Assembly (NCBI GenBank): GCA_034226945.1
Contig: CP120457.1
Coordinates: 310,001-374,000 of the forward strand
Direction: 5' to 3'
DNA length: 64,000 nucleotides
Source: Picochlorum sp. SENEW3
Lineage: Eukaryota
Below, piece by piece: positions 17,077 through 64,000 of this stretch (its first letter is position 1; each line of letters starts with the position of its first letter). Below the pieces are notes generated by a model. The model had not been told where the DNA came from. It ran no database searches and saw only the letters and a program-made list of their open reading frames with translations. The translations under genes and the position numbers were made by a program.

Positions 17077-17671
17077 ACCACCGCCACCAAGTCCTCTATT
17101 GACAACGTCTGGGACGTTGTACAAGAATGCCACGTATATTGATGATAATACAGTGCAGTTGACCCAAGATGTTAAGGCAGTGCAAGGTTTAGTGTACTGG
17201 GAGGGTGTTTTGGGCTACTCTTGGGAGGCATCGTTTCAGTTCAAGGCAAATGGATCTCAATTTTACAACGGGGCTGATGCATTATGGTTTTTCGCGTACC
17301 GAGAAACAATAGAGGGTACACCACTTGAAGTGTCTGCCAACACAGGCTACAACTTTGCTGCCATTGAATTTGGCACCGATAGGTACCAATTATTTGCTCG
17401 CGACCTTCCTACGACGAGAACCGATGCGGGAGTCAAACTGGATAATGATACATGGAGGACCATGGAAATAACCTTTTCAAGCGATGGCACTACTGATACG
17501 ATCACCATGACTGTTGACGGGTCTCAGGTAATCACTCAATCACATGTGGCAAACCCTGCTTTGAAGTATCTACAGCCAACCTACTATGGTTTGGGAGGAC
17601 GAACAGGTGGAGTTTCAAACAATCATTACGTCAGAAACTTTGACATATCCAGGACATCTGACCCTGCCTAG
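16314..17671 (+). CDS. Secreted PAN/Apple + Pro-rich linker + L-type lectin-like protein, copy 2 (intact). Intron 16571-16698
   Basis: Same architecture as copy 1 at offset 2386. Complete lectin-like C-terminus YYGLGGRTGGVSNNHYVRNFDI. Confidence 0.75.
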
Positions 17672-18257
17672 CCTGGCGAATAAACTGATGGCATGACCAA
17701 GTATTGATACTGAATTTTGCATCCTGCAGTCGGTATCCCCGATGCTAATTCCACTAGTGGATCCACTTCCAGGGCTCCGGAGCCATGATAAATCAGTGTG
17801 GGTTACCTATATATGCTGCATACATGAATCATGTATCATGATGATGCAGCATGTGTGCCATCTAGACAGATCTCAGATCCGATCTGACAGATCTTTGTCA
17901 CAATAAAAATGTCTGTGTGCTCATCACCACTCTGCATTTATTTTTGATAAATTAAAATAATTAATACTGAGACATATCATACGTCCAAGGTATGAATGGT
18001 ATACGGTGGATGTATCGAACGAGTGATGATGGTGATGAAATGCACGACTGTTTTGTATGACTTGTCACAATGATTACCCGACTATTTCCGATTGCATGCA
18101 TATGTCATTACTTATTAGCTTCAACTTATTAACTTGTGTAGTTACAATCATTTGTTTCTTTGAAGCATCGCAACGGTCGGAAATTACCTTTTTCTTTTGG
18201 GTTCCTGCCTCGTGTTTTTCAAAACATTTGTCTCTCTCGAGGAATACAACGTGGATT

Positions 18258-22524: not shown

Positions 22525-23595
22525 ATGGATTGGATCCATCAATCATGGCAGCGAGTAGAGAAGGAATTTGACGCATGTCGGGCTGTGCCAAAGACAGCGG
22601 GGTATTTCCTGAGTTCTGATATATTTCAGGGGAGCATTGTCCGATTACAGATTCCATGTGATATAGCAAGTGAAAATAAAGTACTTGTGGGGATAGCTGC
22701 GCTTCGAGTGGGTCATGAATGGATGCATCATACCAGCAGCGGTCTCTGGGCGACCCCGTTGCTGTCGTCCGTCTTGGGACTGGCTCACCTTGGGGTTCGA
22801 TCGAACGCATTCAGCGTATCGCTGAATCCGTATAGGATAGTAGGGAAGCATGAGTATTATAGAATGCTGACGAGTGTGGTATCGCAGTCGTCAACGACGC
22901 AGTTTTTGAATTCTCTGGCAGATGTGTACAGTGCTGGGTGCCAGATGGAAGCCATGCTGGGGGGTGTGGGCATGGTGGGCGGGATGGGTGTCGTCAGTCT
23001 GCTGGGTCAGGTATTCTATGGTATGTATGAATGGCGGTGATTGATAATTGTATTCTGATGACTCTATATATATATCACTGCAGTGGCGGCAACCTCTCTG
23101 GCCACCATGGTGGCCCCTGCAGTGTCTCTGGCGCAAGAGTATTATAGATTCTCAGTGGGCTTGTCCATCACAGCCATGGGAGCGCAGACGATGGTGGGAT
23201 ATTTGGATGATGCGAGAGAGTCGATGCGCACCAAGAGGATTCAGTGTGTCCACCGATATGACTGGATCACCAAGATGCTTGCATCCGTGTCCCTGGCATC
23301 ACTATCATCTCGATACTTGATGAACACAGGGTCAGAGATGACTGGCATGTTGGAACAGCCATCCGTGTACGGACATGTAGCAGGTGTGATGGCTGGAATA
23401 ATGACTGCGCATCTCATGATACCATCCACATCGTGGTTGGGAGGAAGAATAGGGGGAGACGGGGTGAGTGTCTTGGCCAGGGTGCAGGATGTCGCCATCC
23501 AATGTGGGCTCCTTGTCTTGACTGCTGCAGCTTCTGCGTCTTCCTCTCGATACCTCACGTATTCTCCTTCTTCTTCTTCTTCTTCTTATTTTTGA
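22525..23595 (+). CDS. Divergent rhomboid-like membrane protein (RHBDD1/RBL-type). Intron 23021-23083
   Basis: Phase-1 intron G|GTATGT...TGCAG|TG joins two ORFs in frame. EYYRMLTS (WR-motif position), SVGLS (GxS) and SVYGHVAGVMAG (HxxG), plus several hydrophobic helices. Confidence 0.55.
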
Positions 23596-24802: not shown

Positions 24803-27800
24803 TTATCCTGTGCGCTTGAGAAGGTACTCTAGAGCGAGTGCCAGTTTCTCAGCAACATGTTGTCGTCCTTGTCTGCTCATGAGGCATTCTGTATGGCGTT
24901 CATCCACTGTCAGCGATAATGGTCCCTTTGGATCGTCAACGTATGGTGTGGACGCATCGAGGAGGGACTTTCCGACCCTGTCTTTTGGAACGATGATGGC
25001 TGTTGGGCCTTCGTATGTGTCTGTTCCTACATGTGGTTGGATGCCCATGCGTTTTAGTGAAGCTGCTCTGTCCAATGTGGCATACACGGCTGTTTCCCAT
25101 GCAGCGACGGGAACGCTCGGATCTGAAGGTTTGAATGAGGTGATAAACTTCAACTGCTGCGTTGGTGATCCAGCTCCTTGCACGAAATCAACGAATTCTC
25201 CGATACTTGATTGGAGAGATCCAATTTCTTTGAGGAGGTAGAACAGACCATACCATGTCGTATCATGGAGCGGAATATTTGGTGGACTAATGCATCCATC
25301 CAGCAATATCAATCCTGTTTGCTTTCCAGAATTGTGAAGATAGCGTGCCATTGCCTGCGCAATCACACATCCAGTGACGCTGGTTCCTGCCAAGAGATAT
25401 GGACCAGATGGCTGCATCTCAATCATAGCTGCGCAGTATGAAGCTGCCAGTTCTTCTGTATCGGTGCACTCTTCTGCATCTGGTCCCAAAGCAAGACCAT
25501 AACATGGAACTCTGAGCATGGCTGCGAGCTCTTTCTGAGCTCCACTAATGTCACCTCGCTCAGAATGCGTCATCCACAAGGGGATTCGTGCAAGTGGGGC
25601 AGACGCCATTTGTGCTGGGGTGCCCGTTTTTCCAATATGACGCAGAATATACCTTCTCTCTGGACATAATCTATTCAATGGAGAAACAACGCAGACTGTG
25701 CTGAGTGATCCAATATCCTCATCCATGCTATCTGGCTGTGGTGATACATCATGCATTCGTGGTGACATCAATGGAAGTGCGCTTACGCCTGTAGCTCTTT
25801 GCTCGGCATCTTTACGCCTCCAAATGGCCTCAAGTATGTGGCGGGTCAATGTTGATGCTGCATGGTGATCTTTTCGGTTCAAATAGTGGAATGTGACTGG
25901 TTGTACAAGGAACCTGATTGGTTCCCAGACATTATTTGGCCCATTGATGATGTGCGCTGCGTCTTCGTGGTCCATTTCTGATATCTGTGAGATGACTTCA
26001 GAAGATGAGAATACCAGGGATTGTCCAGGGAAGATATCCACTGGAGAGTAGCTATCTGACACTGTCTTGTAGTATCCCAATCTCGATAAGGTGACATCAA
26101 CCTTGACGTCCCATTCAGCTACTGAAAGATTTTCGGGCCTGAATGAAGCCAAGTAATCAAGCTGCTCATCGAATGCAGGCGTTTCTGCGAGACGTATCAC
26201 AATCTCATCCAAAGGTGGAGCCTTTGGACCCATGGTCTCCAAAATCAAGGGATACAGCGCAACTGCTGCTTGGCATGTGTCCACAGCTGCCTCCTCAGAG
26301 AGTAGTTGGGACACTTGCGTATTGTCCTTGATCGTGTATAATCCTTCAAATAATGCCAGTGTACAGACATTGTCGTTGAGGCCATCCAGGTGAAGCGCAA
26401 GCTCATGTGCAAGCAGTCCGCCAAAGCCAACACCGCCAACAACAACAGGCTTGTTCATCGGGATTGTCCTCTGGAGTGCTTTCATTGCAACTGTGGCAAG
26501 TTCGTTCAGGTCGGGAGCTTCCCAGAGAAGGTTGTCTTGAGGCAGGTGAACAGCGAATGCCGGAATGTTGACATTGCTGAATATAGTCTCAAGCCCACCC
26601 AAGGTTCCATTTGCTTCACAGCACACAATCAGGAGAGCCTCGACATCGCCTGGGCCTGTCTGCTCTTGCCACGCCTTTCCAACTCTATTAATTGCAAATA
26701 TCTGATCTTTTGAAGATCCGGTGAATGCACTGCCAACGCCTTCTTCGGTTGCATATGGCATGGCAACCTCCAGTCTTCGTCTGAGACCAGGATCATCCAC
26801 TCCCATCTTCTTCAGATAAGAATCAATGTCTCTAATCTCATTGGCTGAAACGGAGTATTGCGGTTTGTCTTCTCTACTGATTGTTTCAGACCAACCAAAC
26901 GGTCCCAGGACCGTTTTCAGGCCCGTAACAAGAATATTCATGTCTTCCAAGTCTTGTCTCAACAATGAGAAATGGTCTCCAGGCACATCAATGACCCTGA
27001 GATCCAAGCACCTTTCATACCAACAGGCGCCGTGGGGATACGGCACGTTTGGTCCCTTCCGATCATCAAAGTATGTACAGACACCTGGAACGAATGCTCT
27101 GAAGTATACAACAGGAGACAACAGGTGGTGATTCGAGAACTCATGACCTCTGAGGTCAGAAATCTGTGATCCCTGCTTTGTTACTAAAGCCACATATTCA
27201 ATTTGCTCCTTTACCTCTTCAACACTCATGTTGGAGTCTCTCATGACACGCCAAATGGGTGCAAAGAACTCATACTTTTGATCCATTGTCATGCCTTTCC
27301 ACTCATCTGATTCCTTTGGATGGGCGATGGAGGATCCCATGCCCAGAGCGTCCCTTCCAAGGGCACCCAAGATCATCTCCATGAGCTCTAAGCAATCCTC
27401 ATCAGTCGCTTCAGTTGCTTCAGGTTTCTGCTCTCTAATTTGTGATTTCAATGGAGTATCCATGATCAGTACTAGTCCGACCTCTTTTCCCCAACTTTCC
27501 AGCACCATTGCAATCTCCACAGCAACTGCTCCTCCATATGAATGTCCTCCAACCAAATAAGGCCCTTCAGGCTGAATCAAAACCATGTCCTCGGCATTCT
27601 GAAGTGCTAATGCTTTCAGGTCCAAGTCATTGTCTTTGTCAAGCACGTAAATTGGTTGTGTACTCCATTGCAGGAACATGGAGAAGGCGAAATAAGCGGA
27701 TTGTGCATTGGCAACACCTGGTGCAGCCAGGAACAGCGGCCTGGCCTGAGCTGGTGGGCGCAATGTCTTCATAAGTTTTGACACTTGGGGCTGTGGTGCT

Positions 27801-30800
27801 CGCACATCCCTTCGTCCCTTTGCGACATATGCTTCCTCCGAATCCTCATCTGTACCAGGTGACAATGCTTTTTCTTCTGAACTTGTGACCACCCCACTAA
27901 TGTATCCGACAATATCCTCAATTGACTGGTAGTCATACAGAAGCGTCACTGGAAGCTCCAATCCTAAAGATTCAGCAAGGATTCTTCTCAGCTCCATACC
28001 TCCTCTAGAGTCCAGTCCTGCTGTCATTAAAGGCTCTTCTGGATGAATGGCGTGGCCAACAACCTGCTTAACTTCATTCATCACTTGGGATTGTATGTGA
28101 ATCAAACGTTCCTCTTCTGTCATCAACAGCAGAGGATGATCTGCTGGGATTTGATCAATCTCATCCTCCTCGTTCTCTGCAGCTCGAGGTGTCTGCGCTG
28201 AGAGAGGTCCAGGTGATGTAGGAGGCAGATCATGTTCACCGACTATCAGGTTCTTCAGCGTAACAGCACTGTCAGATCCTAAAGCTCTTGCATTCGTGAC
28301 TGCCCAGGAATCTTCCTCAGAGAGATCCATTGATATGCTTTCCATACGCTCGTGAGATCCCAGATTGAATGAGATATGCTCGATTGTCCTGACCCATGTC
28401 AGTGGCGATTGGAGAGGTGCCATGTGACTCGCAGTGAGGGCGACCACAGCTTCAACAACGCATGAATCAACATGATTGTCCATTGACCTCGAATTATAGT
28501 GCAGAGAAGAGACAGAAGACGCTTGTCCCCTTTGAAGCAGTCCAGATAGGAGTGCTGATGGCTTGTGCAGTTTTGGAGCACCAGCCGATTGTCCAGATGG
28601 TACTGACATCCTTGCCGCCATCACTTTTTGTAAGGAGTGGGTCACCTCCAAATGACCGGTCAAAGGCTTGATGAGAATTGACACTGTACTCTCATCTGCA
28701 GTCATTCTCTTACTGGGCCGAGGTAATGGTAGAGGAGCTGGGAACGTCGCTGCTGCCACTCCACTAGCAATCAATGAAGAATCTGAGACAAGCATTTCCA
28801 CCCCTGCCATGGTGCATGTCAACAGTGTAGAAGATAACAGATGTGATCTTCCGTAAATCTGGTTGCATAGATACTCGACATTCTTCGAGGAATTGATTTG
28901 ACTTTCGAAAGTCACTGATCCAGTATTATTCTTTGATCGTCGCCTTACCCAGGCAACATCAAGCAGTTTTGCCACCCTTGGAACGACCCACATTCTCTGG
29001 CACTCCCAATTAACCACGTCGCAATTAGGAGAGATCACGGTTATCCCTCCTATTCCTTTAATAACTGCATGTGCGTTTGTTCCCTGTGCGCCAAATGAAC
29101 TGACTCCCAAGATAGCCTCACCACTTGAGACATCTGATGGAGTACCTATCTTGCTACTCCTTGCTATCAAGACTTTACTGTCTCTGATTGCGCCATATAC
29201 GTGTGGATTCAAGTGACGCAAATGAAGGGCTGGAGCCATGCAATTTCGCGTTGCAACTTGCATTGCTTCACACAGACCGACTGCACCAGCAGCTGACTCC
29301 TGGTGCCCTGTGTATCCTTTGACTGTTGCAAGCATGAATGGCAAATACCTATGACGAGATAACGCTACCGCAGAAATAGCCCCTATTTCGATTGGATCTC
29401 CAAGACTAGTACCGTTAGAATGTAATTGAATTCCGTTGACATCCTCTGGTCTCATAGAGCTGGCATACCAAGCCTCTCTCAACAATTGTTGCTGTGCTGG
29501 ACCATTAGGAGCTGTCAAAGAGCTAGCTCTTCCATTCGTATTGACTGAGCTCCCGCTAATTACCGCGATAACATCTTCTATATCTTTTTGAGGATAGTTG
29601 GGACCGAGAATCAGCGTTCTTACTGCTTCTCCTCTGGCGTACCCATCAGCAGAGGCATCCAGAGTCTTGGAGCGCCCTTCTGGAGAGATCATCTGTGCCC
29701 TTGTTAACATGAGGGTAGATTCAGGGACTAAGCAGAGCAAGACTCCAGCAGAAATAGCAGATTCCATTCGAGATTCCCTAAATGCTGAACAAGCCATATG
29801 TGTGGCGACCAGAGATGCAGAACATGCTGTATCAACGCTCACCGCAGGGCCCTTGGCAGCAAACACATATGCCAGCCGCCCGCTTGAGACGCTTGGGGAG
29901 GCAGATGTGAAGCTAAATGCATTGATTGGCTGCCCGTTTCGATGACTCAAAGATTCATAGTCAGTCGCCGCAATTCCAACAAAGGCACCTGCCTGCTTTC
30001 CAAATACAATCTCAATGCCACCTGCTGAAGTCAGAGCAGATAATGTTTGCATCAATAAAAGTCTCTGCTGTGGGTCCATGCCAACAGCTTCTGATCTCAT
30101 AAGGCCAAATAATTCTGCATCGAATAACTCGACATCTGGAACGAACACACCAAATTGAGATGGAATATTTCCCTCCCCATCAACGAGGAGAGGGGAATTG
30201 ACATCCCATCTCTCAATAGGTACTCTGATCGATGCATCTCCTTGCACCCAATCCTGCAGAATCTCTGTTTGCCCAGACACTCCGAATACATTGATATCGG
30301 ATCCTGAGAAGTTTGCATTGGCTACCAAAGCATCTTCTGCATCGCCAATCGGCCCACCGTCGCCACTCAATGCCTGGCTCAAAAATTCACTCATTGCGTC
30401 AATTGTGGGGTAGTCAAACACAAGTGTCGAGGGCAATTCAATCGAAAGCTCATCTTGAAGCTTTTGCTGCAATTCGGTTGCTCCTAAAGAATCAATTCCA
30501 GCTTCCATTAGAGGCTCGTCAGGCTTTACAGACTCGCCAACAATGGATTCAATTGCCTCTGTGACAATCAAACGAACAGTGTCCGGGTCAATTCCTGCCT
30601 GGACTGGCTTAGAAGCCTCCAAAACTCTATAATCTTGATCGAACACGGATGATGAGTAGTCCTGGGCACTCGGGCTGAGTATGAGAGGCGTGTATGGACT
30701 TCTTGGTGTCAATGCAGTTGAGCCTGGATCGGCCTTTGGTCTTTCAGTCAGCAGCCTTCTTGTCTCGACCTCACTGAGTGAAACTTTGCAAACGCCGCCT

Positions 30801-33800
30801 GCATTCACGGACTGCTCCACGTATCGTTCATCTTTGCTGAGAACACTTGAGGTCCATGCATCACTCAAACTGGTTTCAAGAGGAGAGGTCTCAATCATGC
30901 CAATTTTGGCAGCAACGCGGATAGTAGAATGGCTGAAATTATGCGCTGTGCACACAGTTCCAGACGATTCTGAAATTGCTGGGTGCATTCTGAATCCATT
31001 AGAATCGACTGCCGTTGTTGACACACATGCCAGATTGGATTTGATCTTTGTTCCCTTTTCCATCACCGCACCAATGGTTGAGGACGTGCCTGGCTGATTC
31101 TGCATAGGCTTCTCTTCAATGCTCGCTGCAGATGCATAGAAATGCACTCTGTTTGAATGCGACAAAATCTCCATGGAACTTGTCGAGACATTGATCATCA
31201 AAATTAAGTTCACGCTCTGTAAAGCCTTCTCAATAAATATTGGTGCAGAGAACAAACCATCTTGCAGATACACACTTGATTTCTGGTTGAGAAGTGAAGA
31301 TACTCCAGACGCTGAGCATTCAATCATTGATGAGGCCGATACAATGCAGCGCCCTTGGATCACGTGATCAAACATGAAACTTCCTCTTGACGAGACGAGA
31401 GTACAATTGAACATTGCTTGCTTTCCTCGCCTAGTTTTAAAGACAGATGCTGTGTGAAGAAGTGTGCTAGGGAGTGGTGCCACCCAGATCCTACCATTCT
31501 TCCAAGGAAGGTCCCTCTTGGCCGCAATAGGGCCTGTATAGTTTGCCTTTCTAACAATGGCATGAGCATTGGTTCCTTGGAATGCAAAAGAGCTGATTCC
31601 AGTGTACAATCTGGAACCTTCAGCCATCCCACTGGCACACCTTGGAGCAAGCCAAAATTGCTGCTTTGTCTTCATGGCCTGCATTTCCATCACCGTTTCG
31701 ATGTGACTATTTAGTTTGGATAAATGCGAGATTCCTTGGACAAATACTGCAGAAGCCGCTATACTGGCGTGCACTAATCCAGTTGCTCCAGCTGCTGCCT
31801 CTGTATGACCAATCCAGGCCTTTGCAGTGCTGGCAGAGACAAAGCTACGCCTAGATGAATGATCCACCAGCACAGCATTGGCTGCACCAAGTTCAATTGG
31901 ATCGCCAAGAGGTGTACCAGTTCCATGCATTTGAAGGTTTGAGATCTCTCCAGGGAGAGTCTCGCTGAATCTTAGGCATGCCCTCATCACCTCAGACTGA
32001 CTTGGCCCATTGGGTGCTGTTAGAGAGGCAGAGCTTCCATCCTGGTTGACTGCTGTACCTACCAAGACAGCTACTGCTTCTAACGAAGCATTTGAATCAC
32101 TGACCGCATAGTACAAGACTGCTGCAGATTCACCTCTCACGTATCCGTCGGCAGCACTATCTAGAGTCTTACACCTTCCGTCAGCTGACAGCATTCCTGC
32201 CTTTTGGAACATTGCTGTGGAATCTGGATTCAGTAAGAGTCCGATACCAGCCGTCAAAGCCGCGGATGAGCTTCCTGACCAGATCGCGTTCGCTGCAACA
32301 TGAGATCCGACCAAGGATGAGGAACAAGCTGTATCTACACTCATTGCCTGCCCTTTGAACCCAAACGTGTATGAGATTCTACCACTAGCAACACTCAATG
32401 CACCACCTGTCGCACTGTAGGCACTCACTCCGCTGGTATGCCTTGCGACAACGTAATTATTGTACTCAGCGCTCGCAATTCCGACGGATACAGCCACATT
32501 TGACTGAGCACTGTAGCCTCTAGATTGAGAATCTGAGATGACTTCTTTCGATAGCTGCAAAATAATCCTTTGTTGGGCATCAATCAGGAGAGCTTCTGTG
32601 GAGGAGAAACCAAATGCCTCAATATCAAACTCATCGATATTCGACAAGTATCCACCGAACCGTGCAGGTGAGTAGTCCTTGGAAAGATACTCAACATCCC
32701 ATCTCTCCACCGGAATTGTGGTAATGGCATCGATTGTATTTATGCATGATATTGACATCGGCGTCTTGAATGCCGCAGACATCAAATGCAGTGGTGTATT
32801 GGATGATTTAAGATTGAGTTCCAGTGTTGGCTCAATATCTTTAACTTCCTCTATGTCAGGGATTGAATCTGGAAGCTGAGTCTCAAGGAATGAAACCAAC
32901 GCAGATGGTGTAGGATAGTCAAATACGAGAGTTCCTGGTAGCTGTAGACCCATACGAGACTCCAATGCATTCTTCAATTCAACTGCACCAAGAGAATCTA
33001 GACCAGCATTCATCAGAGATTCATCCATTCCAACAGTTGCTCCTGTGATGGATTGAATGGCATCTAGAACTTCAGTCTGGATTGCTTCCGTGGATTTAAT
33101 CACACTTGTTTGAATACCGGCAGCTTTGCCACTTGAAGATTCTAGCTTCTTTTGAACAAAATTCTTAAAGAACACTGGTGGGCTAGATCCCAGTCGCTTC
33201 ATCATCTTCTCCCAAATGAAGAGATTTGCTGAAGTAACCGGTTCGTTTGCTCTACAAGACACCACACTCTCCAAGACTCGCAGGCCTAAGTTCGGATCAA
33301 GCAGTCCCATACCAGTTCTTTCAACCCTGATTTGCGTAGAGGAATCATTTGCAGCCATACCAGAACCAGCCCAAGCGCCCCACTGGATGCTCTGAGAAGT
33401 CAAGCCACTTGCCTGGAGATGGGCTGACATTGCGTCAATGACTGCGTTTGCAGCACTGTAGTTTGTCTGCCCAGGAGAGCCAAGCAAGGCAGCCACAGAT
33501 GAAAACATAATTTGGAACGAAGTTGGGTGCTCCGTGGAGAACCTATTGATCAGGTTGACGCTCTCAACCTTCGCTCCGAACACCTGGGCAACTGACTTAA
33601 TTGTCTGGGAACCAATGGTGCCATCCCTGAGTACTCCTCCAGCATGAACAATACCCAGAAGTTTACTGCAGTATATCTTCGAGGTATCTGCCCTAGTGGA
33701 TGTGTCACAGGATGTTGAGGTGCACATAGATCCAAAGATACTGTCAGATACACAAGAAAAGTCAATTGGCGAGCCGGTGGTAGGTCGCCCAGTTCTGCCA

Positions 33801-36800
33801 AGCAAGACAATATTCAGCATATTTTGACTGGCAGCCCAATTTGCCACTTGGAACCCAAGTGTACCCATTCCACCAGTGATGACAATAGCATTTTCTGTTC
33901 CTGTATCCTCACGTTGGGACATATGAGAAGCACTGACAACGATCTTTCCAACATGCCTTGCCTGAGACATTTGTCTCAGCGCTGACGACACATTGCTCAT
34001 GCTATGTGATACGAATGGAAGAGGTTTCAGATAACCTTCAGCAGCCCCTGCAGAAACAGACATCAAAGCAGAATGCAGTGCATCCTCCGGCATAAAGTCA
34101 ACTGCCAGAAGAGAATATTGAATATCTGGCCTTTCCTGCGATGATCTGCTGGAGCTCCAAATATCTCGCTTGCTGATTTCAACAAATCTTCCACCCATAT
34201 CTATAGCTGCCAGGGACGCAGCCACCATGCCACTTGAAGTCAAGCTGTTAAGCACAACATTAACTGGTCCACAGAGCATCACATCAGATGCAAATATTGT
34301 ATCTCGAGATCCTAGTGCATCTGAAACTCCTAGGCTACGTACCAAGAAACGCTTGTTTGAGCTTCCGGCAGTAGCAACTGTCCTTGCACCTTTGGATGTG
34401 GCCATTTGAATAGCAGCAAGTCCTACACCCCCTGCAGCTGCATGCATCAATAGAGTCTCTCCTTTTTGAATTGAAGCGATCTTATTCAGGGCTGTATCCA
34501 CAGTTATGAAGACAGTTGGCATTGTAGCAGCTTCTTGGAAAGTGATTCCTTCTGGGATGGGGACCAATGTCTTTTCAGATGCTAAAACATGGCTTCCTAA
34601 GCTTCCAGCTGCCAAACCAAATACCCGTTGCCCAATCGTAAGAATGGATCCATCAGGAGAAACTCTTGTAACAACTCCTGAACAGTCACCGCCAGGATCT
34701 CCAGGATCCCCAGGGTACATGCCCAGAACGTTGAGGACGTCTCTAAAGTTGATTCCAACAGATTGTACCTGTATCTCAACCTTACCAACACCGACTGCAT
34801 CAATTTCCACAGGTTCTGGAACTAGATTACCAAATGCACCTCTTGGTCGAGGCATGAGGTGGTACGCAGGAGGCTTTTGGCGCTGAGTGCTCTCCAACAG
34901 TACAGCTAGATCTGCAGCATTGCCGCTGACAAGGCTTCCATATCCATCAGAGACAGAAGGTTCAGATAGAATGGAAATCTCTGTACCATGTTGCTTTTTC
35001 ATGTTGATATCCGTAAGATAGCCAGTATTTGTCAAGCCTGGCATCTCAGCTGCAAGGGATCGAATCATACCCCAATCTCCCTGAGCTTGTTCTCCAAACT
35101 TGTTATTGCCATGTGTAGAATTGACAGAAACTGCCAACTCCTCTCTGGTGGCAATACATTTCAGAGCTGAAAGCATGTTACCAGCATGCTGCGTTGCATG
35201 ATCCTGATATTTTACCGAGATGAGATTGCCTTGTATCTCAACCCCATGGTGAACATGGTCAACTTGTCTCTGTACAGTGTACGTGATATTTTCATTCACA
35301 ACTCTTCTGGAAACCTGTCGGCCAGAGGATGTCATAGGCTTTGCAAGGAGACCTTGAAGATGCATTATATCCGCACCATCGCTTGTCTGCAGCCGATGAT
35401 CGCGGAGCGTGCCTCCCAGATGCTCACTTGATCTTGCCTTTGACTGGGCCATGATCTGCTCCCTGCTGTGGACTGAATCCACGACAACGAAAGCATCTAT
35501 GGCAGCAGGCACAAATGTCTCATCTTTAGAAACTCCATCCTCTTCGATCACCGCGCCAAGTTGGAATGTATTGTCCAGCACGCTTGGGTGAATTTTGTAT
35601 CCTGTTGTGATATTCGTAGCATCTCCTACCACAATCTGTGAACAGGCATCTGTTCTATTTCCATGGATATTGCGCATTCTCCTAAATGCAGGTCCATACT
35701 GAAGACCTGCTGAGTTCATTTCACTGTATATGTGTCCAGAATCTCTTGGTAGACTGCACTGTGCCCTGACTACTTCCATTGATTTCCTTGAACCAGTTTC
35801 AAGATTCCTGCGGCCATTTCTGTCAATCTGTACTGCTTGATTAAAATGTGCACTCAAGTGACTGATCTCGTTGGACTTACTACGAGATATAATATTAATC
35901 TTGAAGTCATCTAGGCTCAATTGAAGAACGAGGGACACGCCTCCTGGACTGTCAGATGCTATCACTAGTGGTGCACTGATGGATGCATTGGCAACACAAG
36001 CAACAGGCGAAGGTAGCTTCGCCAAAGATGAATTAGACGCCACCGCAAGCTCGAGATATGCTGCTCCTGGCAAAATGGCTGAACCATTAATTTGGTGGTC
36101 CCTCATGTCAGCCAAACAAGGAGAATCAAGCTGACAAGAGAGTTCCACTGAACGACCCATTTTAACACTCTGGAGCAGGAATGGGTGGTAACTCGTTAAA
36201 ACTTCAACATGGGATCTCAAAGTAGAGTGCCATTCAAACTGGTGATCTGTTTCAAATCCATCTAGGCTAGAAATGATGGCATGAGCGTTCACTCCACTCA
36301 TGCCGAATGAACTTGTACCAGAGAATGTTGCATCACTTGGAGAGCTCTGAATCGGCAACCGATGTGCCTTATTCCACCCAGTAAACGAATTCTTGACATA
36401 TTCGTTCATGTTTCTGTAGCGCAGGGGATGTGCATACTGATATGCCAGTTGGACTCTGCAAAGCATGAGGCCTGCCAGTCCGGCTGTTCCTTCCAGGTGT
36501 CCTGTCAAAGTCTTAGATGCCCCAACCGTGAAGGATTCGTTGGATTTGCTGGAGGAAATCGCTTTCCTGAGGGCTCCAGTCTCTATTGGATCACCCAATG
36601 GGGTACCTGTGCCATGCGATGCAACATAGCCCAAATTGTGAACATGTGCCTGTTGCATGGATTGAATGATCAGGTTTTGCTGAGATGGTCCGTGAGGCGC
36701 AGTCAAACCAGCGCTTCGGCCATCTTGGTTCACAGAAGATCCTGCGACTCTAGCCAAAGCATCAGATTTGCACTGATCCAAACGCTGAAGCACAAGAGAA

Positions 36801-54800: not shown

Positions 54801-57800
54801 AAGACGCCCCAATTTGCCCTATTCTGCTCCTCAGACATCTCCAGAGACCTTTGTGTAGCTATGTCAAAGGCAGTTTCCAAGAGAAGGCGCTGCTGAGGAT
54901 CGATGAGTACAGATTCTGTTTCTGAAAGTCCAAATAGACTATTATCGAACATATCCACGTGATCAAGGAATACTCCGAACGGTACTGGCAATCCTCCACA
55001 CAGGTCCACTTGTTTTTCAAGGTCCCAGCGGCTCAAGGGGACGTGTTCCACACAGTCGGATGGCTCCTCCGTGATGAAATTCCGATGTGTTTTCGAAGAA
55101 AAGCATAAAATTTGTACATCACGTGCACCCCCTGACGGTATCAGAGCGTGTTCAACATCTGCAAGGGACAAGTCATCACCTGACTCAGAGAAATCTGATG
55201 AAATCTGTGTGCTCAAATAATTTGACAGTGCCCCTACGGTTGGATAATCGAACACAAGAGTCGATGGAAGCGATATACCGAATGACGACTCAAGAGCATT
55301 CTTCAGCTCAACAGTTCCCAGGGAGTCCAAACCAGCAGCCATCAATGGTTCCTCAGAGTCGACAGGCTTGCCCAACACTGCCTTCACTGCCTCCTGGACC
55401 TGTGGCTCAAAGTCACCGATTCTTGGTCTCGATGTGGCTTTTACAGATTTTCTCCTTCTTCTTCTATCCATCTTGGATTGGTTTTCTTCTACGGATTCGT
55501 CATCAGATGATAGTTCCTGTTGTTTTCCACCGTGCAGGGAAGCAGTTGTTTCTAGATATTTTGACAGTGCAGCTACAGTTGGATAATCGAACACAAGAGT
55601 CGATGGAAGCGATATACCGAATGACGACTCAAGGGCATTCTTCAGCTCAACAGTTCCCAGGGAGTCCAAACCGGCAGCCATCAATGGTTCCTCAGAGTCG
55701 ACTGGCTTGCCCAACACTGCCTTCACTGCCTCCTGGACCTGTGGCTCAAAGTCAACACCACTTGAATTAGTGATTGCTTTGAAGCCCTTACGGGCCTTAG
55801 GTTTTCGTTCTTTAGGCCTTTGTATCACGTCCTGAGTGGATGAAGATGGAAGGGCACCAGGGCTCCAGAATTCAGCAAAGTTGCCAAACATAGGTGGGAT
55901 TTCACGGAATTGCCTCAGGAAGTTTTCCCAGATGAATGGAACGACAGAAATGACCGATTTAGTCATAGCACCGAACATTAAGGAGCTAAAGGCCGAAATA
56001 CCTTGATTTGGCTTCACCATGCCCATGCCCAGTCTCTCAACTGCAAGGCGAGTCTTTTCGTTAGCCATACCCCCCTCTGCCCAAGCGCCCCATTGGATGC
56101 TCAACGCAGGAGACCCGTGGTTGAGCTGAAGGTCAGCGATCACATCAATGGTGGCGTTTGCTGCGCTGTAGTTTGTCTGACCAGGCGATCCAAGTAGAGA
56201 TGCCACTGAAGAAAAGAGAACAGCATTTGAAAGTGGGTAATTCCGAACACTATTCTTCCAGATCAGAGCACTGCTAGATTTTGGCCCTGATACGGTCCTT
56301 ACGCGAGAAAGATTCTGGTTAGTTGCCATTGCGTCAGACAGAACGCCTCCAGAATGAATTAATCCCTGCGAGCAGAAAAAAGTAGCTTGATTATGAACAC
56401 TTTAATATAGCAGTCAAGTAAGTAACATGACATACCATTACTGGTTTTGATGAACTGAAGAGCGAGACAATGCCTGCAACATTCTCCGAAGACGTTATAT
56501 CACATTTACAGGCGGAGACCTCCGATGTTGTTCCATTATTTGTGATACTTCTCACAGCAGCGTTGTCTCCCCTTCCAGTGCGGCTGAGGAGTACGATGTG
56601 TTCAACATTGTTGGAAGACATCCAGGTTCCCACCAAAGATCCTATCATACCCAAACCACCAGTCACAAACCAAAACCCTGATAGTCCATGCGAGTCTGAC
56701 AATCTCGCTCTTCTTGTCACAATCTTTCCAATGTGTCTGGCCTGTGACATCTGTCGCAAAGCTGCCCGTACAGAGTTCAAGCTATGATTCACAGATGGCA
56801 ACGGTTTCAGGGATCCAACTGAGAGATTACATGCCAGCCTGGTGAGATACCTGTTGACAGCCATATCTGGGAGGAAATCTACCGCCACCAGGGTGTACCC
56901 AACGTCAGGACGCTCCTGGCACACACGGGAGCCACTCCAAATGTCACGCTTGCTGATCTCAATGAAGCGGCCTCCTGGACGAAGCACAGAAAGAGATCCA
57001 GAAACCATCCCGCTGGACGTCAAGCTGTTCAGAACAATGTCAACGCCCCCGAGCTCTGCCACCTCAGACACAAACTGGGTGTCGCGAGAGCCAAACGCGT
57101 GGCAAACCCCCATGCCGCGCACCAACGAGCGCTTGTTAGGACCACCAGCAGTCGCCACAACAACACCTCCAAGAGCAGCCACTTGCTGGATGGCAGCGAG
57201 GCCAACTCCTCCCGCAGCACCGTGCACCAGAGCCCGTTCACCAGGCTGGCAGCCCGCAGCCTGGCGGAAGGCCGCGTCTACAGTGATGAACACAGTTGGG
57301 CAAGTCGCAGCTGCCTCAAATGAAAGGTTGGGAGGCATCGGGGCCATGCGTGGGGCGGACACGTGGACGTGCGAACCAAGGCTTCCACCAGCCAGCCCAA
57401 ACACGGCATCTCCTGGCTGAAGGGAGTCAACGCCTTGGCCACAGGAAACCACCACACCCGAGCAATCACCTCCAGGGGGGCCAGGGTCTCCAGGATACAT
57501 CCCCAGAACGTTCAAAACATCACGGAAGTTGATGCCCACAGACTTGACGTCAATGACAATCTCACTGTCTCGAACCGTAGAAATATCAAGCACCTCTGGC
57601 CGCAGGTTGTTCAAAGCCCCCCTTGGCTGGGGAAGTAACTGATATGCTGTCTTTGATGGCCTCACATATGATTCTACTAGGGTTTGGGAGAGGACGGTTC
57701 TGTTCTGAATGCTGATTGGGTATTGATTGTTGCCCAATTTTGAACCACTGGCCCTCAGTGTTGGATTGAAACTTTGAGATGCCTCAACAGCATATCCAAC

Positions 57801-60800
57801 AGAGGCAAAAGAAACATCTGAGAATTCTTGAGCCATTGATCGCATCATACCTTGAAGGCCTGCTTGTCTTACTACTTGATCAGTCATTCTGTGGATCTCA
57901 GTCGACATATTTGGTGTAAGCGTGGTCAGGGTGACTGCTTTGGAAGCAGAAAGTGCTACTGCTGCAGACAGTCCAGATGCTATGACAATGCTATGGTCAT
58001 TTCCACTGACTTTCAGGGAGAAGTCTTTTGATTCGAGAACTTCGTCTGGAAGGACTTGATCTGCGAGCCACGACTGTTCATACATTGCATCTGATGCACC
58101 TGATGCTGAGGTCTTCGTTGTGCCCCTCGTCTTCCCGATAGATTTGCCGACAAGGTGCTTGATTGAGCCTCTGATCTCTCCATCAAGCTGCATTAAAATG
58201 TCGACCAGTGTTCTATCAGCAGACTTATAAATCGGCGAAGCCACTGCGTGAAGGCTACGTGTAGACTTTCTCGGCAACACCATCGATTCTGAGGCTGCAG
58301 GGATGAATAGAGGATCCCCTGGCTTTCCACCAATGGCACCAAGCTGCAACGTGCAGTCCATGGATGATGGAGATATAACATAAGTAGACTCGTCATGTAC
58401 CGGATCTGCGATATCAGCAAAATAAAGTGTATCTTGTTGCTGCGGCTGCTGGTGGTGGTGGCCAGTCAAGAAAATATGCTGTGAGACTGACCTCCTGTCT
58501 GCCTCCTCTATTTTGCTGAGAGCGATGCCAACTTGTCCCAAGAAATGGGGCTTCGGCAACACATTGTTGATTGATGAACCTATTTCCAATATTCCTGAAT
58601 GTGGAGAGATTGATATGATGAGTTCACTCTGTACCTTCTCTGCTGGGTTCATTACTAAAGCACTTGGAATGGAGGAGTCCAACAGCACAATAGTTGATGA
58701 TTCACCAGTTAAAAGCCTGGCTGCTGAGTTTGACATCTCAAAATATCCAGCACCCGGGAAGATATGCCTTCCTTGAACCATGTGGTCCCACAAGTAAGAG
58801 TTCTGCGAGGCTCTCAAATCCACTGATAGGATTGTAGCCTTTCTCCTACATGTAATTCTTTGCAAAAACCTAAACACAGACGGCACAAGCCACAAGTGCT
58901 TCTTCTGTAACATTAAGTTTCGTTTGTCTCCAACTAATTTGGGCTTAGATTTACTCGCAAATCTATCAGTGGAGGAGAGAATAACATGGGCATTAGTACC
59001 TTGGAATGCAAATGCACTTGTTCCGATGACTGATAGGTTTGTTCCGGCAGACTGCCTTGGTATTGACACGGCTTGTTCTGCACTGTCAAACACTGCTGAC
59101 ACGTAAGGATTCATATGTACCAAGTGCAACATTGGAAGTGACAAATCAGCCCCAGTTGCAGTCTGTGCATGTACCAACCCTGCAAGGCCAGCAGCAGGCT
59201 CAGCATGGCCCATCCAAGACTTTGATGACATCAAGGCCAGTGGCTTCGTCCTTGCAGAACCAGACAGGCTCGTATTTGCAGCACCAATCTCGATAGGGTC
59301 TCCCAGAGCTGTGCCAGTGCCGTGCATTTGCAGTGCAGATATTTCCTCGTACGACATGCCTGCGAGTCCCATGGCAGACTGGATTACAGTGCTCTGTGCA
59401 GGCCCATTTGGTGCCGTCAAGGCACTAGATCTGCCATCTTGATTGACAAAACTTCCGCAGATGAAGCCAGAACAATCCGAAATTTTAATGTCGCCACTAT
59501 GGAGAAGGATAGACCCTATTGCCTCAGCCCTAACATACCCATCAGCTGTGGCATTCAATGTCTTGCATCGGCCATCATATGTCAGCATTCCTGCCTTTTG
59601 AAGAGTTCCTAATGTTGTTGGATGCAGGATAATATTTGCACCCGAACTGGAAGCAGTTTCGCATTGACCCATGTCCAAACAATTGTATGCCATGTGCAAT
59701 CCCACCAGTGATGATGAACATGCTGTATCAATTGTCATTGCTGGCCCCTGAAGTCCGAACGTGAAACTAAGTCTTCCTGACACGACACTGGACGATGTGC
59801 CTGTTCCTGTGTATGCTGTTATCCCTCCAAATGCCAACGACATTTTCAGGTAGTCTTGAGCAGAGCAGCCGACAAAAACACCACATTGCTTGGAGTTTGA
59901 GGGGTAGAATTGAGAAAATGTCTCTGCCACTGTTTCCATAACTAATCGCTGCTGTGGATCCATCATCATCGCTTCTTTATCTGCAAGCCAGAAAGCATCC
60001 GCATCAAAGTGACCTATGTCATCCAACAAACCTGCAAAGCACACTGCTCGATCTCCTGTGAGTTTGTCCTGACACTCTGTGTTCCACCTGCCTTCATAAA
60101 TATTGACGCTGCCGTCAACCGGGTCGAATTTTTTGTTCTGCAAAGCACCCCCTGGAAGCATGGCAGCCATTCCCACGACTGCAATGATGGAGGAGGATTT
60201 TCTCTTCTGACTGATTTCCACACTCATAATGGTTTGATCCGTGGGTTCATCTTCAATGGAAACAGATTGCACAATGTCTAACGGAGTCACCATAAGGTAT
60301 TGAACTAGTTGCTCCGGCGTCGAACACTTGTTTAGCATATCAGGTGGTAACACCACCCCCAGCCTAGCTGCCAAGGCTCTCACGAATCTCTGCTGTGCAG
60401 TCTCATCCGCCGCATCAGCGATCCGGTCAGATGGGGAAAGTTGCCTTCTCAGTACAGAAGATATTGTGGAATATACCACGTCAGATACTAAAGTATGGTC
60501 ATCAGCATCCGATCTTGGGTTCTCACTTTTATCAGGCATAGACAAGCCCACCACAAAGTTGCCAATAGATTCAGCATTGGGATAATCAAAGACAAGTGTA
60601 GATGGCAATTGTACTCCAATCTGGGTTTCTAGAGCATTTTTAAACTCCACAGAAGTCAAGGAATCCATACCGGCTGACATAAGAGGCTCATCTGGCAATA
60701 TGTCTCTTCCAAGGATCGAAGAAGCAATTGAAACAACTTGCTCAACTACTCCAGCCGAATCAACAGATTGGGACTCGGGTGGATTTTCGTCTGACTCTTC

Positions 60801-63800
60801 CTGTTGGGAATTTACGATGTATTCACTGATTGCTTCAATTGTTGGATAATCAAACACCAGTGTTGATGCAAGAGATAATCCCACCCTAGCTTCGGAGCGA
60901 ATTTCGAACTCAACGGATGTCAGAGAGTCCAATCCTGCAGACATCAACGGCTCGTTGGGCTCTACTTCTCTGCCCAAAATAGATTTCACAACACTAGATA
61001 CTATTACCACCATCTGTTCTTGTGATACAGAAGCTTTAGGCCGTGAAGAAGCAACCTTGGACTTCCTCTTCTTCCGCAGCAATGAGGAAACGAGTACTTG
61101 TGAGGATACTTGTGCAGCATCATGTACTTCCTTCCTTGAAACATATTTATCAAACAGTCTCGGTACGTTGGGATGCAATCTCGACACTAATTTATCCCAC
61201 AAGAATGGCACCGCAGCAATATTGCTTGGGAAACTGTTGCCTTGGAGAAGCATTTCAATCAAGGACAGCCCTTCCTCTGGTCTGATCATCCTCATCCCAA
61301 GCCTTTCGACCCTGGTTGCTGTCGAAGTATCTTGGGCAGCCATCCCGGCTCCAAGCCAGGCCCCCCATTGTGTGCTCACACTATAGATGCCTGCTGTCTG
61401 TCCAGAAGATGCTATTGCGTCAAGTAGACTATTCGCAGCACTGTAGTTTGCTTGGCCAGCGGAGCCAATCAGTGATGCAACAGAAGAGAATAATACTTCT
61501 GCAAGGATCCCATTGCCAAACGTTGCGTTTCTTAGCTTATCCCATGAAGCTATCTTTGAAGAAAATACCTTCACTATCTTTTTATGGCTTTGTGTTTGAA
61601 TCAAGCCATCTTGCAAAGCTCCTCCTGCATGAATGACATGCACAAAAGGTCTTAACAAGTCTTTCTCTTCTGTGATTTTAGAATCTTCTGAAACAGAGAA
61701 ATCTGCCATATGCAGGACAACCAATTTTGAACTGTTAAGAATGGAAAGAGATACAGAGCTTTTCACCTTTCCACTTCTACCTGCTAGTCTCACATCATCA
61801 ATCATGCTCGTATTTGTGAGTAAATTTGCTACGAGGGAACCGAGAGAACCTGTACCCCCAGTGATGATGCAAGACGCAGGAATGTTCAACGCAATATTTT
61901 TTCTTTGCTGGAGTTCAGATAAAGAGGCAAACTTCTGAAGATTCGCAGACTCTTTGAACCCATACGTGGTGGATGAATCGTTCTGATGCTTGGATTTCCT
62001 GATGAAATACGTGGTGTTTTTTGTTGGACAATCACGAACAAAGTCAATGGCAGACGGAGCCTCAAGATTTATTGAACGCATTAGGCCCCACAGCAGTGGA
62101 ACTGAGATCATTCTGTTTTGGCATATCTCAAATCCAGAACTGAGTGCGTTGCCTGTAGTCAAAGCTAAACTACATGATCCTATTTGCTGCAACACAGATA
62201 TTGATGTTGAGCACAAATTTGCTGGGAGTCCGTCTTTCAATGTAACTTTCACATCATTGACTTGGTCAGTATGGGCTCCTGGCGATGGTTGGTCAACCAG
62301 CCAATCTATTTGATACTTGAATGATACACTCTGAATGGCTGCCTTTGGAGAGCTTTTTGAAGGCGCAACAAGAGGCTTTGCCAACAGATCCTGAATTGAC
62401 TGACAATTACCCTCTCCTGGGAAGATGTAATAGTCCAGATATGAATGCAGGCGTGACCTGGACTTCTCTAAGCAAGTTCCTGTTACCTGATTTGGGACAC
62501 TTGATCTGCCGGTGAAGCAGCCAACTCCTGTAGGGACCTGCATTCCCATGCCCCGATCACTGCTTGGTATAGCACCCAATTGCAGACAGCAGTCTATCTG
62601 CGCTGGAGACATGTTCACATCAGATGCTTCGTGGAACTTTCCATTTGAGATGTTTCCAATGCAGCTATGGAGTTCGCTATTGGTATCATTACGCATCAAT
62701 ATGCGTGTTGAGGAGTCTTCCCGTTGGTGCATCTCATCAAGACATGGAGAAGTTACCAGGGGTCCAAGGACACCTTGTAAGCAAAGAGTGCCATTCTGAC
62801 CCAGAGAAATCGCTCCATCAGTCCGTTTTAGATAAATGGACAACAAATCCGATCCAGGCTGCTGGGCATCCAGCTGGAATGGCGAAGGTATGATGGCACT
62901 TTGGAGGAGAATGGCTGATGCTCTATCTCTACTTCCCATGTTTCCAACAGCAGCAGCAAGCTCCATGAATGCTGCACCTGGAACCAGAATTCTATTGATC
63001 ACCTTATGGTCCATGAGGTACGCTCCTCTTTTCCCCCGAAGCAAATGCGCTTCGAATCGCAAGGAATCGCTTTCAGAGGAGGCAGAAGAAAGTGACGAAT
63101 GCACAGGTCCTGCTATCCAGCAAATGGAGTGATGCCAAGGAACGTCCGGGTTGACAGGAGAGTCAATCGCACTCCCCTGCTTCACTAGACTGTGAGCGTT
63201 TGTTCCTTGGAATGCAAAAGCACTAATTCCAGCGACACTTGATGTACCTTCCTCAACACTTGGTGACTTCTGTCTTGCTGCTGACCAACACGATCCCGCA
63301 TTTGAAAGGTATTTGTTTAGGTTTCTCAGATGCAATACTTCGATCAGAAGTGATTCTGATACCATGTGAGAGGCATGTTGGAGTCCAACTACACCAGCTC
63401 CTGCTTCTGAATGACCAGCCCATGACTTCGATGCAGTCAGGTTGACTGGCATGGATCTTGCCTGCCCAATTACCCCAGATATAGCCCCAACTTCGATGGG
63501 GTCTCCCAAAGGAGTGCCAGTTCCATGCATTTGCATTATTCCAATATCATCAGGTGACAGAGCATCTTGCTTCAACGCAGCTCGGATAACACTCTGCTGA
63601 GCTGGGCCATTTGGAGCAGTCAAAGATGACGATCTACCATCTTGATTCACCGCAGTACCACAAATCGCCATCGAATATTGTTGTACATCCATTGAGGTAA
63701 TAAACATCATGCCGCAAGAATCTGCTCTGACATAACCATTGGCAGCAGAAGATAAGGTCTTGCATCTGCCATCAGGTGCGAGCATACCTGCCTTCTGGAA

Positions 63801-64000
63801 CATGGCAGTGGTACTTGGTGTGAGTAACATGTTCACACCACCACTCAATGCGTTTGTACACTGCCCAAGATTGATACTGTTCGCAGATGTATGCAGAGCG
63901 ACAAGTGAAGAAGAGCAAGCAGTTTCTACTGGCACTGCAGGACCTTGGAATCCAAATGTGAAGGACACTCTCCCAGCTGCAACACTTATTGATAGTGTTC
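24803..64000 (-). CDS. Giant AT-less modular type I polyketide synthase, 5'-truncated by the window, at least about 13,040 aa. Visible order: KS-DH-KR-ACP-ACP-ACP0 / KS-DH-ER-KR-ACP-ACP / KS-DH-ER-KR-ACP / KS-DH0-KR-ACP / KS-DH-ER-KR-ACP / KS-DH-ER-KR-ACP-ACP / KS-DH-ER-KR-ACP / KS-DH*-ACP / KS*-DH0-ACP / TE-TE0-TE*
   Basis: Nine xTACSxS KS motifs (~63915, 59720, 54640, 50085, 46610, 41995, 37010, 32325, 29820), seven TGGxGxxG/YSxAN KRs, five ERs with (G/A)AAGGVGLA, and twelve G(L/M/I)DS ACPs. No AT GHSxG/HAFH/YASH motif seen. The frame stays open to base 63998. Confidence 0.95.
55221..55754 (-). repeat. Tandem near-identical ACP-coding repeat, about 195 bp (55221-55415 and 55560-55754)
   Basis: Offset 339. 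Both copies encode [59 protein letters not shown]. Confidence 0.93.
56366..56435 (-). other. 70-nt phase-0 spliceosomal intron joining the 2525-aa and 10508-aa PKS ORFs inside a KR domain
   Basis: Minus strand reads ...CCA GTA ATG|GTATGT...TCGCAG|GGA TTA ATT CAT TCT GGA GGC GTT CTG TCT GAC. Splicing restores the KR motif SKPVM-GLIHSGGVLSDAMATNQ. Confidence 0.93.

Follow-up and report, generated by a model that had tools for sequence, protein, structure and literature searches.

A giant AT-less modular polyketide synthase gene in Picochlorum sp. SENEW3: a probable PKS1 orthologue and its predicted product

Megadalton-size polyketide synthases (PKSs) without integrated acyltransferase (AT) domains have been catalogued in chlorophytes (Shelest 2015, PMC4661987). 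In Table S2 of that catalogue the enzyme of Chlamydomonas reinhardtii, CrePKS1, is given as ligase-ACP3-[KS-DH-ER-KR-ACP]x5-[KS-KR-ACP]-[KS-DH-ER-KR-ACP]x3-[KS-ACP]-[KS-ACP-TE] (KS stands for ketosynthase, DH for dehydratase, ER for enoylreductase, KR for ketoreductase, ACP for acyl carrier protein and TE for thioesterase), with 1, 2, 1, 2 and 1 ACPs in its first five full modules. In the same source VcaPKS1 is like CrePKS1 with a TE2 ending, CvaPKS1 ends with KS-KR-ACP, two full modules, KS-ACP and KS-ACP-TE, and the KS motif table reports HSNGT once (CvaPKS1-KS9, together with DTACSAS) and HANGT twice (CrePKS1-KS11 and VcaPKS1-KS11), both of them only in the terminal KS. Here we describe a giant PKS gene lying on the minus strand of a 64,000-nt stretch of DNA of Picochlorum sp. 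SENEW3 (GenBank assembly GCA_034226945.1, contig CP120457.1, positions 310,001 to 374,000 of the forward strand; hereafter the window, to which all coordinates refer). On the basis of its domain order and motifs, we consider it highly probable that this region represents the 3' 39 kb of the nuclear Picochlorum orthologue of PKS1, a highly reducing, AT-less modular type I PKS. The gene is an additional member of a published family, with the program of that family, and not a new class.

Reading from the C-terminus, the visible protein reproduces modules 4-11 of CrePKS1, as published, domain for domain, including the ACP counts of 2 and 1 at Cre modules 4 and 5, and its first visible module (m0) corresponds to Cre module 3 minus the ER; CvaPKS1 is also listed as ER-less at that position, with ACP2, as here. 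The C-terminal order of the PKS1 family (full, full, KS-KR-ACP, full x3, KS-ACP, KS-ACP-TE) is present, in a multimodular protein of MDa size that is encoded in a green-algal nuclear genome and has no integrated AT or methyltransferase (MT). The terminal KS (KS8) keeps DTACSAS and carries HSNGT in place of HGTGT, that is, the HxNGT form of the family. The same terminal signature, along with a KS-DH*-ACP-KS-DH*-ACP-TE ending, was also found in the homologues P0374 and P0277 (Trebouxia), and in P0003 the signature can be followed to the limit of the protein. An earlier note on this stretch, made by a model from the sequence alone, had used Chlamydomonas PKS1 as an analogy; it overlooked that the module order is actually the same as that published for CrePKS1, VcaPKS1 and CvaPKS1.

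The closest described systems differ from this gene in some respects, as far as the published tables describe them. The C. reinhardtii gene (Cre10.g449750) and VcaPKS1 share with it the lack of AT and MT, the C-terminal order and the ACP doubling at the same module; however, their terminal KS carries HANGT rather than HSNGT, the ER of the Cre module 3 equivalent is absent here, three TE-like domains are found where Cre has TE and Vca TE2, and one intron in 39 kb is to be compared with a Chlamydomonas gene given as 83 kb. CvaPKS1 (Chlorella variabilis, JGI 57723), which also belongs to the Trebouxiophyceae, has an identical DTACSAS/HSNGT terminal KS and the ending KS-ACP-KS-ACP-TE, whereas it possesses two full modules before the bare ones (three here) and several of its DHs are uncalled, differences that may come from gene-model or detection limits. 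If the analogy with CrePKS1 holds, the sequence upstream of the window should encode a loading part (acyl-AMP ligase-ACP3) and roughly two further modules of the fully reducing kind, and the product would be a hydrophobic wall precursor. CrePKS1 itself is reportedly required for the zygospore wall to form and for desiccation tolerance, a finding ascribed to Heimerl (2018) in the papers citing it.

The two long open reading frames (ORFs) of the minus strand are parts of one spliced gene, whose 5' end lies beyond the window. The first (24803..56329, 10,508 aa) is a run of stop-free codons whose chance occurrence, calculated from base composition, is about 1e-242; the second (56391..63998) lies 61 nt upstream of it and is open at the window end. 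They are bridged by a GTATGT...CAG intron (minus strand, GT..AG; 56366-56435), the length of which (70 nt) is not a multiple of 3 and accounts for the frame change between the two ORFs. The Pfam KR profile is split by this intron, its positions 2-79 ending on the final residues of the upstream exon (exon 1) and 84-180 beginning on the first residue of the last exon (exon 2), so that the KR of module 1 is complete only across the splice. A public contig from run X1 (guessed to be RNA) covers 56239-56364 and resumes at 56435-56470 over 162 nt with zero mismatches ('skips 70, CT..AC, cut +1'), matching the predicted intron, and the X1 depth is 0 in the bin 56365-56419. A contig of run X5 (56394-56811), flagged 'probably DNA', retains that part of the intron, and the intron falls outside both X12, an oligo-dT RNA run covering 57178-57400 only, and X8, which covers only parts; contig depths were not taken as expression levels. 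The visible protein amounts to 13,041 aa (2,521 aa from exon 1 and 10,520 aa from exon 2), with one intron within the 39 kb of visible gene and a single, terminal stop in the translation of the last exon; at the other end, the first tile of the protein matches positions 150-248 of the ketoacyl-synt profile on residues 4-102, i.e., a partial KS belonging to module 0. The earlier note had proposed a splice joining the ORFs, a protein of more than 13,000 aa with a 31.5-kb exon (31,563 nt as measured) and a continuation past the window, all of which these data bear out.

The domain map was obtained by a Pfam scan of 62 overlapping 600-aa tiles (cut-off for AT, E<=1e-5), and profiles made from domains of the gene itself yield an identical map. 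It comprises 9 KSs (the first cut by the window end), 12 ACPs, 7 KRs, 5 in-line ERs and 3 C-terminal TE-like domains, in the order KS(partial)-DH-KR-ACP-ACP (m0), KS-DH-ER-KR-ACP-ACP (m1 and m5), KS-DH-ER-KR-ACP (m2, m4 and m6), KS-[gap]-KR-ACP (m3), KS-[gap]-ACP (m7) and KS-[gap]-ACP-TE-TE-TE (m8). In m0 the DH and the KR are just some 150 aa apart, too little to hold an ER. Downstream of the two ACPs of m0, visual reading of the translation shows a third stretch resembling an ACP, in which the phosphopantetheine Ser is missing (60249-60506, minus strand); Pfam gives two PP-binding stretches only. By its motifs, the C-terminus is composed of one canonical thioesterase (TE-a), whose beginning shares 80% identity with the TE start of P0374, followed by two degenerate ones; TE-c has weak matches to animal fatty acid synthase (FAS) thioesterase chains in a PDB sequence search that is not able to type TEs. 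Thus, the reading of at least nine modules with in-line ERs made in the earlier note stands (nine KSs and five in-line ERs being mapped), whereas the three TE-like domains had escaped it, as had the DH-like remnants of m3, m7 and m8, which it had read as modules without a DH.

The catalytic residues are well kept. All nine KSs retain the Cys and both His, and none is a KS0; the DH His is present in m0, m1, m2, m4, m5 and m6; the Ser/Tyr/Asn region and the LxD motif occur in 7/7 KRs, GGVG in 5/5 ERs and the Ser in 12/12 ACPs. The LxD motif denotes a B-type KR according to the Caffrey/Keatinge-Clay rules. KS-KS identities within the gene range from 33 to 53% (45% between KS1 and KS2), KS6 being the most divergent. 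The gaps of m3, m7 and m8 align with DH domains in which the His is replaced by Gly in m3 and by Asn in m8; in m7 the His is kept, the HxxxGxxxxP Pro and the DxxxQ Asp are lost, and a sub-threshold Pfam match to PKS_DH_N (E=2.3e-4) is found.

The absence of AT from the modules, already claimed in the earlier note, was confirmed: PF00698 gave no match in 62 tiles at the above cut-off, or in the 5 unassigned stretches at E<=1, and no AT domain was found in the 15 flanking ORFs (24.8 kb downstream). From the end of the KS profile to the start of the DH profile there are 55-66 aa (seven modules with a match to the own-DH profile), which leaves no space for an AT or the usual KS-AT linker domain. 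Since no cis AT exists, malonyl must be loaded in trans, and a separately encoded malonyl transferase would load each ACP. The hallmarks of bacterial trans-AT enzymes were not found in the visible protein: there is no KS0, split module, trans-ER or MT family, the five ERs are in-line, no further families (e.g., for beta-branching) appear in the Pfam tiles, and the KS-flanking subdomain (~100 aa) was not recovered, the KAsynt_C_assoc matches spanning 19-31 residues with E 0.0008-0.0095, below the cut-off. In the PDB sequence search, which is unable to place a KS in the cis- or trans-AT clade, the top summed score for KS1-DH1 went, via two stretches, to 7zma ('putative polyketide synthase'), which we take to be a trans-AT bimodule, and the single-stretch matches, close to one another in score, mixed cis-AT enzymes (CurL, DEBS) with MAS, FAS and AT-less KSs. 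These sequence features do not support placing the gene in the bacterial trans-AT family, and it appears better described as a FAS-like line of reducing modules from which AT and linker have been excised, an excision that Shelest (2015, PMC4661987) proposed for algae. The label 'trans-AT' used in the earlier note is deduced from the lack of AT. As for polyunsaturated fatty acid (PUFA) synthases and animal-type FASs, no AT was found here and the DH matches are to PKS_DH_N/PS-DH, as opposed to the FabA-type DH of PUFA synthases; moreover, no module carries more than two ACPs and nine modules follow one another, versus the ACP runs of the former and the single iterative module of the latter.

A gene model of P. 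renovo (Picre1/29096, 1,898 aa) aligns with residues 4538-6452 at 96.4% identity (1,915 positions), with 99-100% identity in the catalytic domains and 93% in the module 3 gap, so that the window comes from a Picochlorum closely related to P. renovo; since the model covers only those residues, the public Picochlorum annotation splits the gene. It is possible that the reports of salt-responsive expression of 'pks1, pks15, ppsA, ppsC' in P. renovo refer to pieces of a single giant gene or of a few such genes; in the portion of the literature on Picochlorum and polyketides that was accessible, no description of the architecture of this gene was found. Beyond Picochlorum, the best protein-search matches are 34-49% identical and belong to algal or unnamed proteins (of up to 5,000 aa, or up to 3,500 aa in a second search). 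A contig about 94% identical, from the metatranscriptome run X8, shows in an ER stretch 22 listed base differences, 19 of which fall at third codon positions and which together change one amino acid, and in a KR-ACP linker 9 differences with 3 amino-acid changes; four further differences lie beyond the list. This pattern supports purifying selection on the gene, as the earlier note had anticipated in suggesting strong selection.

Modules have also exchanged sequence, as it seems. Some 680 nt within the ER of module 2, including a 300-nt exact repeat, are nearly identical to their counterpart in module 1, with one mismatch in the scanned 60-nt windows (0.98-1.00 identity) and 0.47-0.62 identity at both edges; contigs of three runs enter this tract from the other context at 56857-56860. 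Such a sharp-edged tract between otherwise distant modules looks like the outcome of gene conversion, which has been described between PKS modules in Ostreococcus. The tandem ACPs of module 1 (55217-55415 and 55556-55754) are 96% identical at the DNA level and those of module 5 (37599-37801 and 37884-38086) 80%, and the two pairs are, judging from these values, recent or homogenised domain duplications.

The reduction map from m0 to m8 reads DH-KR, full, full, KR only, full (three times), none, none. Because of this map and of the intact active-site motifs, colinearity supports the predicted chain R-CH=CH-(CH2)4-CH(OH)-(CH2)7-CO-CH2-CO-CH2-CO-S-, the formula that the earlier note had derived by the same principle. 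Each module would extend the chain once by C2, in order; numbering carbons from the thioester, and with each module setting the state of the carbon from the preceding one, the last 19 carbons would bear a C18=C19 double bond, methylenes at C14-C17, a C13 hydroxyl (D-configured, given a B-type KR), methylenes at C6-C12 and a keto group on each of C5 and C3. The earlier note had left this chain on the ACP; TE-a, which it missed, would instead release it as a 3,5-diketo acid or, more likely, as a 6-alkyl-4-hydroxy-2-pyrone. Thioesters of the 3,5-diketo type typically lactonise to 4-hydroxy-2-pyrones.

Some observations weigh against an orthologue of PKS1 with this product. The comparison with PKS1 was made at the level of the published architecture string and of motifs, and no zygospore of Picochlorum is described in the parts of the literature examined. 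A metagenome scan with the DH region of module 0 gave no relative, and one with the KS0 region (here the KS of module 0) gave 30 loci, the best 58% identical and none orthologous, which were set aside. Run X1 is classed as RNA by automatic guess only, and the splice joint stands on one contig, with a shorter side of 36 nt. Lastly, between species the DH-like domains of m7 and m8 share 26-34% identity, about as much as active DHs (30%); thus, they may not be inert, which would alter the chemistry of the chain end.

With regard to the alternatives, the idea of two separate genes, of a pseudogene or of an assembly artefact might find some ground in the ER tract, since 680 nt identical in two modules could mislead an assembler; yet the repeat is entered by contigs coming from either context (loose ends at 56857), no stop interrupts the 31.5-kb frame, the KR is whole only across the splice for which a spliced contig exists, and the P. 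renovo model is 96% identical, with the differences from relatives biased to synonymous ones, so that we regard this idea as practically negligible. A different matter is who loads the ACPs. It is conceivable, albeit doubtful, that no dedicated trans-AT exists and that the ACPs are loaded by the housekeeping malonyl-CoA:ACP transacylase of fatty-acid synthesis or by self-malonylation, which would fit both the lack of an AT among the 15 downstream ORFs and the loss of any KS-flanking docking subdomain, with a KS-DH spacing of 55-66 aa; against it, the PKS1 family is placed in the trans-AT class by Shelest (2015, PMC4661987), by prediction only.

The chemistry, too, admits other readings than the colinear one. 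The same enzyme might stutter, skip modules or be used as a line more than once, its product then being unreadable from the gene. Bacterial AT-less PKSs often break colinearity, the KSs (33-53% identical) do not clearly group according to the substrate that each is predicted to receive, KS6 diverging most although a saturated chain should reach it, and the PKZILLA preprint gives no product for members of the PKS1 family. Nevertheless, all nine KSs keep the elongation triad and none is a KS0, the module order has been kept from Chlamydomonas to Picochlorum, which argues that order matters, and PKZILLA modules line up with prymnesin in the same preprint, a precedent for reading algal AT-less giants module by module; a non-colinear enzyme thus seems unlikely to us. 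Somewhat less probable still is that the DH-like domains of the last two modules are working parts (e.g., product-template-like cyclases, or double-bond or enol handlers), in which case the chain would end in something other than a plain 3,5-diketo acid or pyrone. Such domains are kept in all the homologues with this ending (P0374, P0003, P0277 and P0014), their identity between species resembles that of active DHs, the His is kept in m7, P0374_a and P0014_a, and Glu replaces the Asp of DxxxQ in 6/6 readable DH-like domains (m7, m8, P0374_a, P0374_b, P0003_a and P0014_a); on the other hand, the His is lost in m8, P0003_a and P0374_b, the Pfam scores are sub-threshold or absent, and m7 and m8 have no KR, so that no DH substrate is made there.

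Going beyond the colinear chain, one may speculate that the PKS1-family ending (three saturating modules, two bare ones and a TE) yields a triketide with a very long alkyl chain, hydroxylated at mid-chain, and that this closes to a 4-hydroxy-6-alkyl-2-pyrone, i.e., the compound class of land-plant sporopollenin precursors (type III LAP5/6), reached by a convergent type I route; that this is a sporopollenin- or algaenan-like wall monomer, used in Picochlorum for the ordinary wall of cultured cells and not for a resting stage; and that the DH-like domains of the last two modules could be ring-forming or enol-handling parts. Taken as a whole, we hold this combination to be improbable. Known routes to alkyl-pyrones and alkyl-resorcinols are the plant type III PKSs LAP5/LAP6 (sporopollenin), Azotobacter ArsABCD and the venemycin PKS. 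What these would share with the Picochlorum enzyme is the logic of the chemistry alone: two malonyl units, left unreduced, are added to a long acyl chain with some hydroxylation, and the triketide is lactonised to an alpha-pyrone for resistant walls. Those routes employ type III PKSs or small cis-AT modules, whereas here the extensions would be made by the final pair of modules in a type I giant, and no sequence relation is claimed. Algaenan has reportedly been described in Nanochlorum/Picochlorum (Derenne, in 1992); the literature search listed no paper on it.

Other algal giants offer a wider frame. Those of the Mamiellales (OluPKS3, OtaPKS1, MicPKS2) are, in the sources available, likewise AT-less enzymes of streamlined green picoalgae with tracts copied between modules; they measure 4,794-20,889 aa, the largest being that of M. 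tinhauana (bioRxiv 2025.04.21.649811). However, they end in a KS0 with DCASAS/SGLGE (PMC4661987), whereas the terminal KS described here is predicted to be elongation-competent, and they lie in low-GC outlier regions, whereas GC (guanine plus cytosine) is 45-52% across this gene and its neighbours. Three 'unnamed protein product [Bathycoccus prasinos]' entries (P0269, P0270 and P0281) carry KS, ACP, KR and ER domains; no type I PKS is listed for B. prasinos by Shelest (2015, PMC4661987), and newer assemblies or strains seem to have one. Bacterial trans-AT PKSs and the haptophyte PKZILLAs also combine the lack of integrated AT with tandem ACPs; unlike them, the present gene has canonical FAS-like loops and in-line ERs, and no KS0, split modules, bimodules, MT or KS-flanking subdomain. 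Twelve PKS genes have been reported in Chloropicon, and an expanded PKS family in P. costavermella.

The flank of the gene encodes PsbR, a TOC159-type translocon GTPase, a FatA/B-type acyl-ACP thioesterase, a P-type ATPase, Rpc25, EMC3 and an MRS2-like protein, a content indicating that it is green-lineage nuclear DNA; with gaps of 21-202 nt between the downstream ATG-ORFs, and with PsbR and TOC159 as neighbours, the green-algal, compact genome suggested in the earlier note is recognizable. The FatA/B-type gene (9561-10622, plus strand) lies 14 kb from the 3' end of the PKS gene and probably serves as housekeeping for plastid fatty-acid synthesis; its product falls in a 90%-identity cluster with proteins of Picochlorum sp. 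BPE23 and P. renovo, and in the P. renovo annotation it appears as two short models (98 and 129 aa). GC content and compactness had also brought Bathycoccus and Chloropicon into consideration as sources of the DNA; both were discarded, given the lack of a listed type I PKS in B. prasinos, the mean GC of C. primus (57.5%) and the cluster of the FatA-like protein, which indicates Picochlorum. Two ORFs on the plus strand (14314-15279, 321 aa, and 16700-17671, 323 aa) have weak legume-lectin-like Pfam matches and may be tandem paralogues. Five flank ATG-ORFs (162-609 aa) have no Pfam family at E<=0.001. The coordinates of the features are reported in Table 1.

Table 1. Features of the PKS gene and of its flank (positions in the window).
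Feature	Position	Strand	Description
Upstream exon	56436..63998	-	2,521 codons; cut by window end; begins mid-KS
Intron	56366..56435	-	70 nt; within module 1 KR
Last exon	24803..56365	-	31,563 nt including stop; 10,520 codons; second half of module 1 KR to stop
Module 0	60522..63995	-	KS (partial) 63297-63995; DH 62334-63131; KR 61296-61886; no ER; predicted alkene
Module 0 ACP x2	60786-61037, 60522-60773	-	
Module 1	55184..60200	-	KS 59091-60200; DH 58113-58901; ER 56682-57614; KR 56436-56693 + 56027-56365; ACP x2 55532-55756, 55184-55414; predicted fully reducing
Module 2	50621..55108	-	KS 54020-55108; DH 53090-53833; ER 51701-52615; KR 51098-51688; ACP 50621-50869; predicted fully reducing
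ER tract, module 2	51861..52545	-	~680 nt; nearly identical to 56857-57541 (module 1)
Module 3	47117..50569	-	KS 49457-50569; KR 47561-48136; ACP 47117-47347; predicted beta-hydroxyl kept
Module 3 DH-like remnant + structural KR part	48137-49456	-	catalytic His to Gly; no Pfam domain
Module 4	42509..47077	-	KS 45977-47077; DH 44999-45790; ER 43556-44503; KR 42992-43570; ACP 42509-42754; predicted fully reducing
Module 5	37565..42469	-	KS 41372-42469; DH 40316-41188; ER 38903-39823; KR 38312-38905; ACP x2 37853-38101, 37565-37813; predicted fully reducing
Module 6	32864..37528	-	KS 36386-37528; DH 35300-36214; ER 33902-34828; KR 33311-33910; ACP 32864-33100; predicted fully reducing
Module 7	30359..32800	-	KS 31691-32800; DH-like 30599-31690; ACP 30359-30598; no KR/ER; predicted keto kept
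Module 8	27869..30310	-	terminal KS 29189-30310 (DTACSAS, HSNGT); DH-like remnant 28103-29188 (His to Asn); ACP 27869-28102
TE-a	26921..27757	-	thioesterase; GHSYG nucleophile motif + GDH His; PF00975 E=8.5e-16
TE-b	25844..26653	-	thioesterase-like; nucleophile Ser to Gly (GVGFG); PF00975 E=2.7e-5, 24.9 bits (cut-off 26.4)
TE-c	24812..25603	-	thioesterase-like; Ser in GTSVT, non-canonical motif; PF00975 E=1.1e-8, 36 bits
Flank ORF without Pfam family	599-1546		
Flank ORF without Pfam family	2212-3024		
Flank ORF without Pfam family	18057-19886		
Flank ORF without Pfam family	22525-23040		
Flank ORF without Pfam family	23107-23595		

On the whole, the gene is, from what the frames, contigs and relatives indicate, real, expressed and well preserved. 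It opens no new class of system; what it offers is a PKS1-type copy that is clean, expressed and nearly free of introns, in a small, transformable and fast-growing alga, a genus in which P. renovo has been engineered (PMC6811619, in the part accessible to us). For finding the PKS1 product and its role in resistant walls, Picochlorum would be far easier to work with than the Chlamydomonas gene, given in the sources available as 83 kb.

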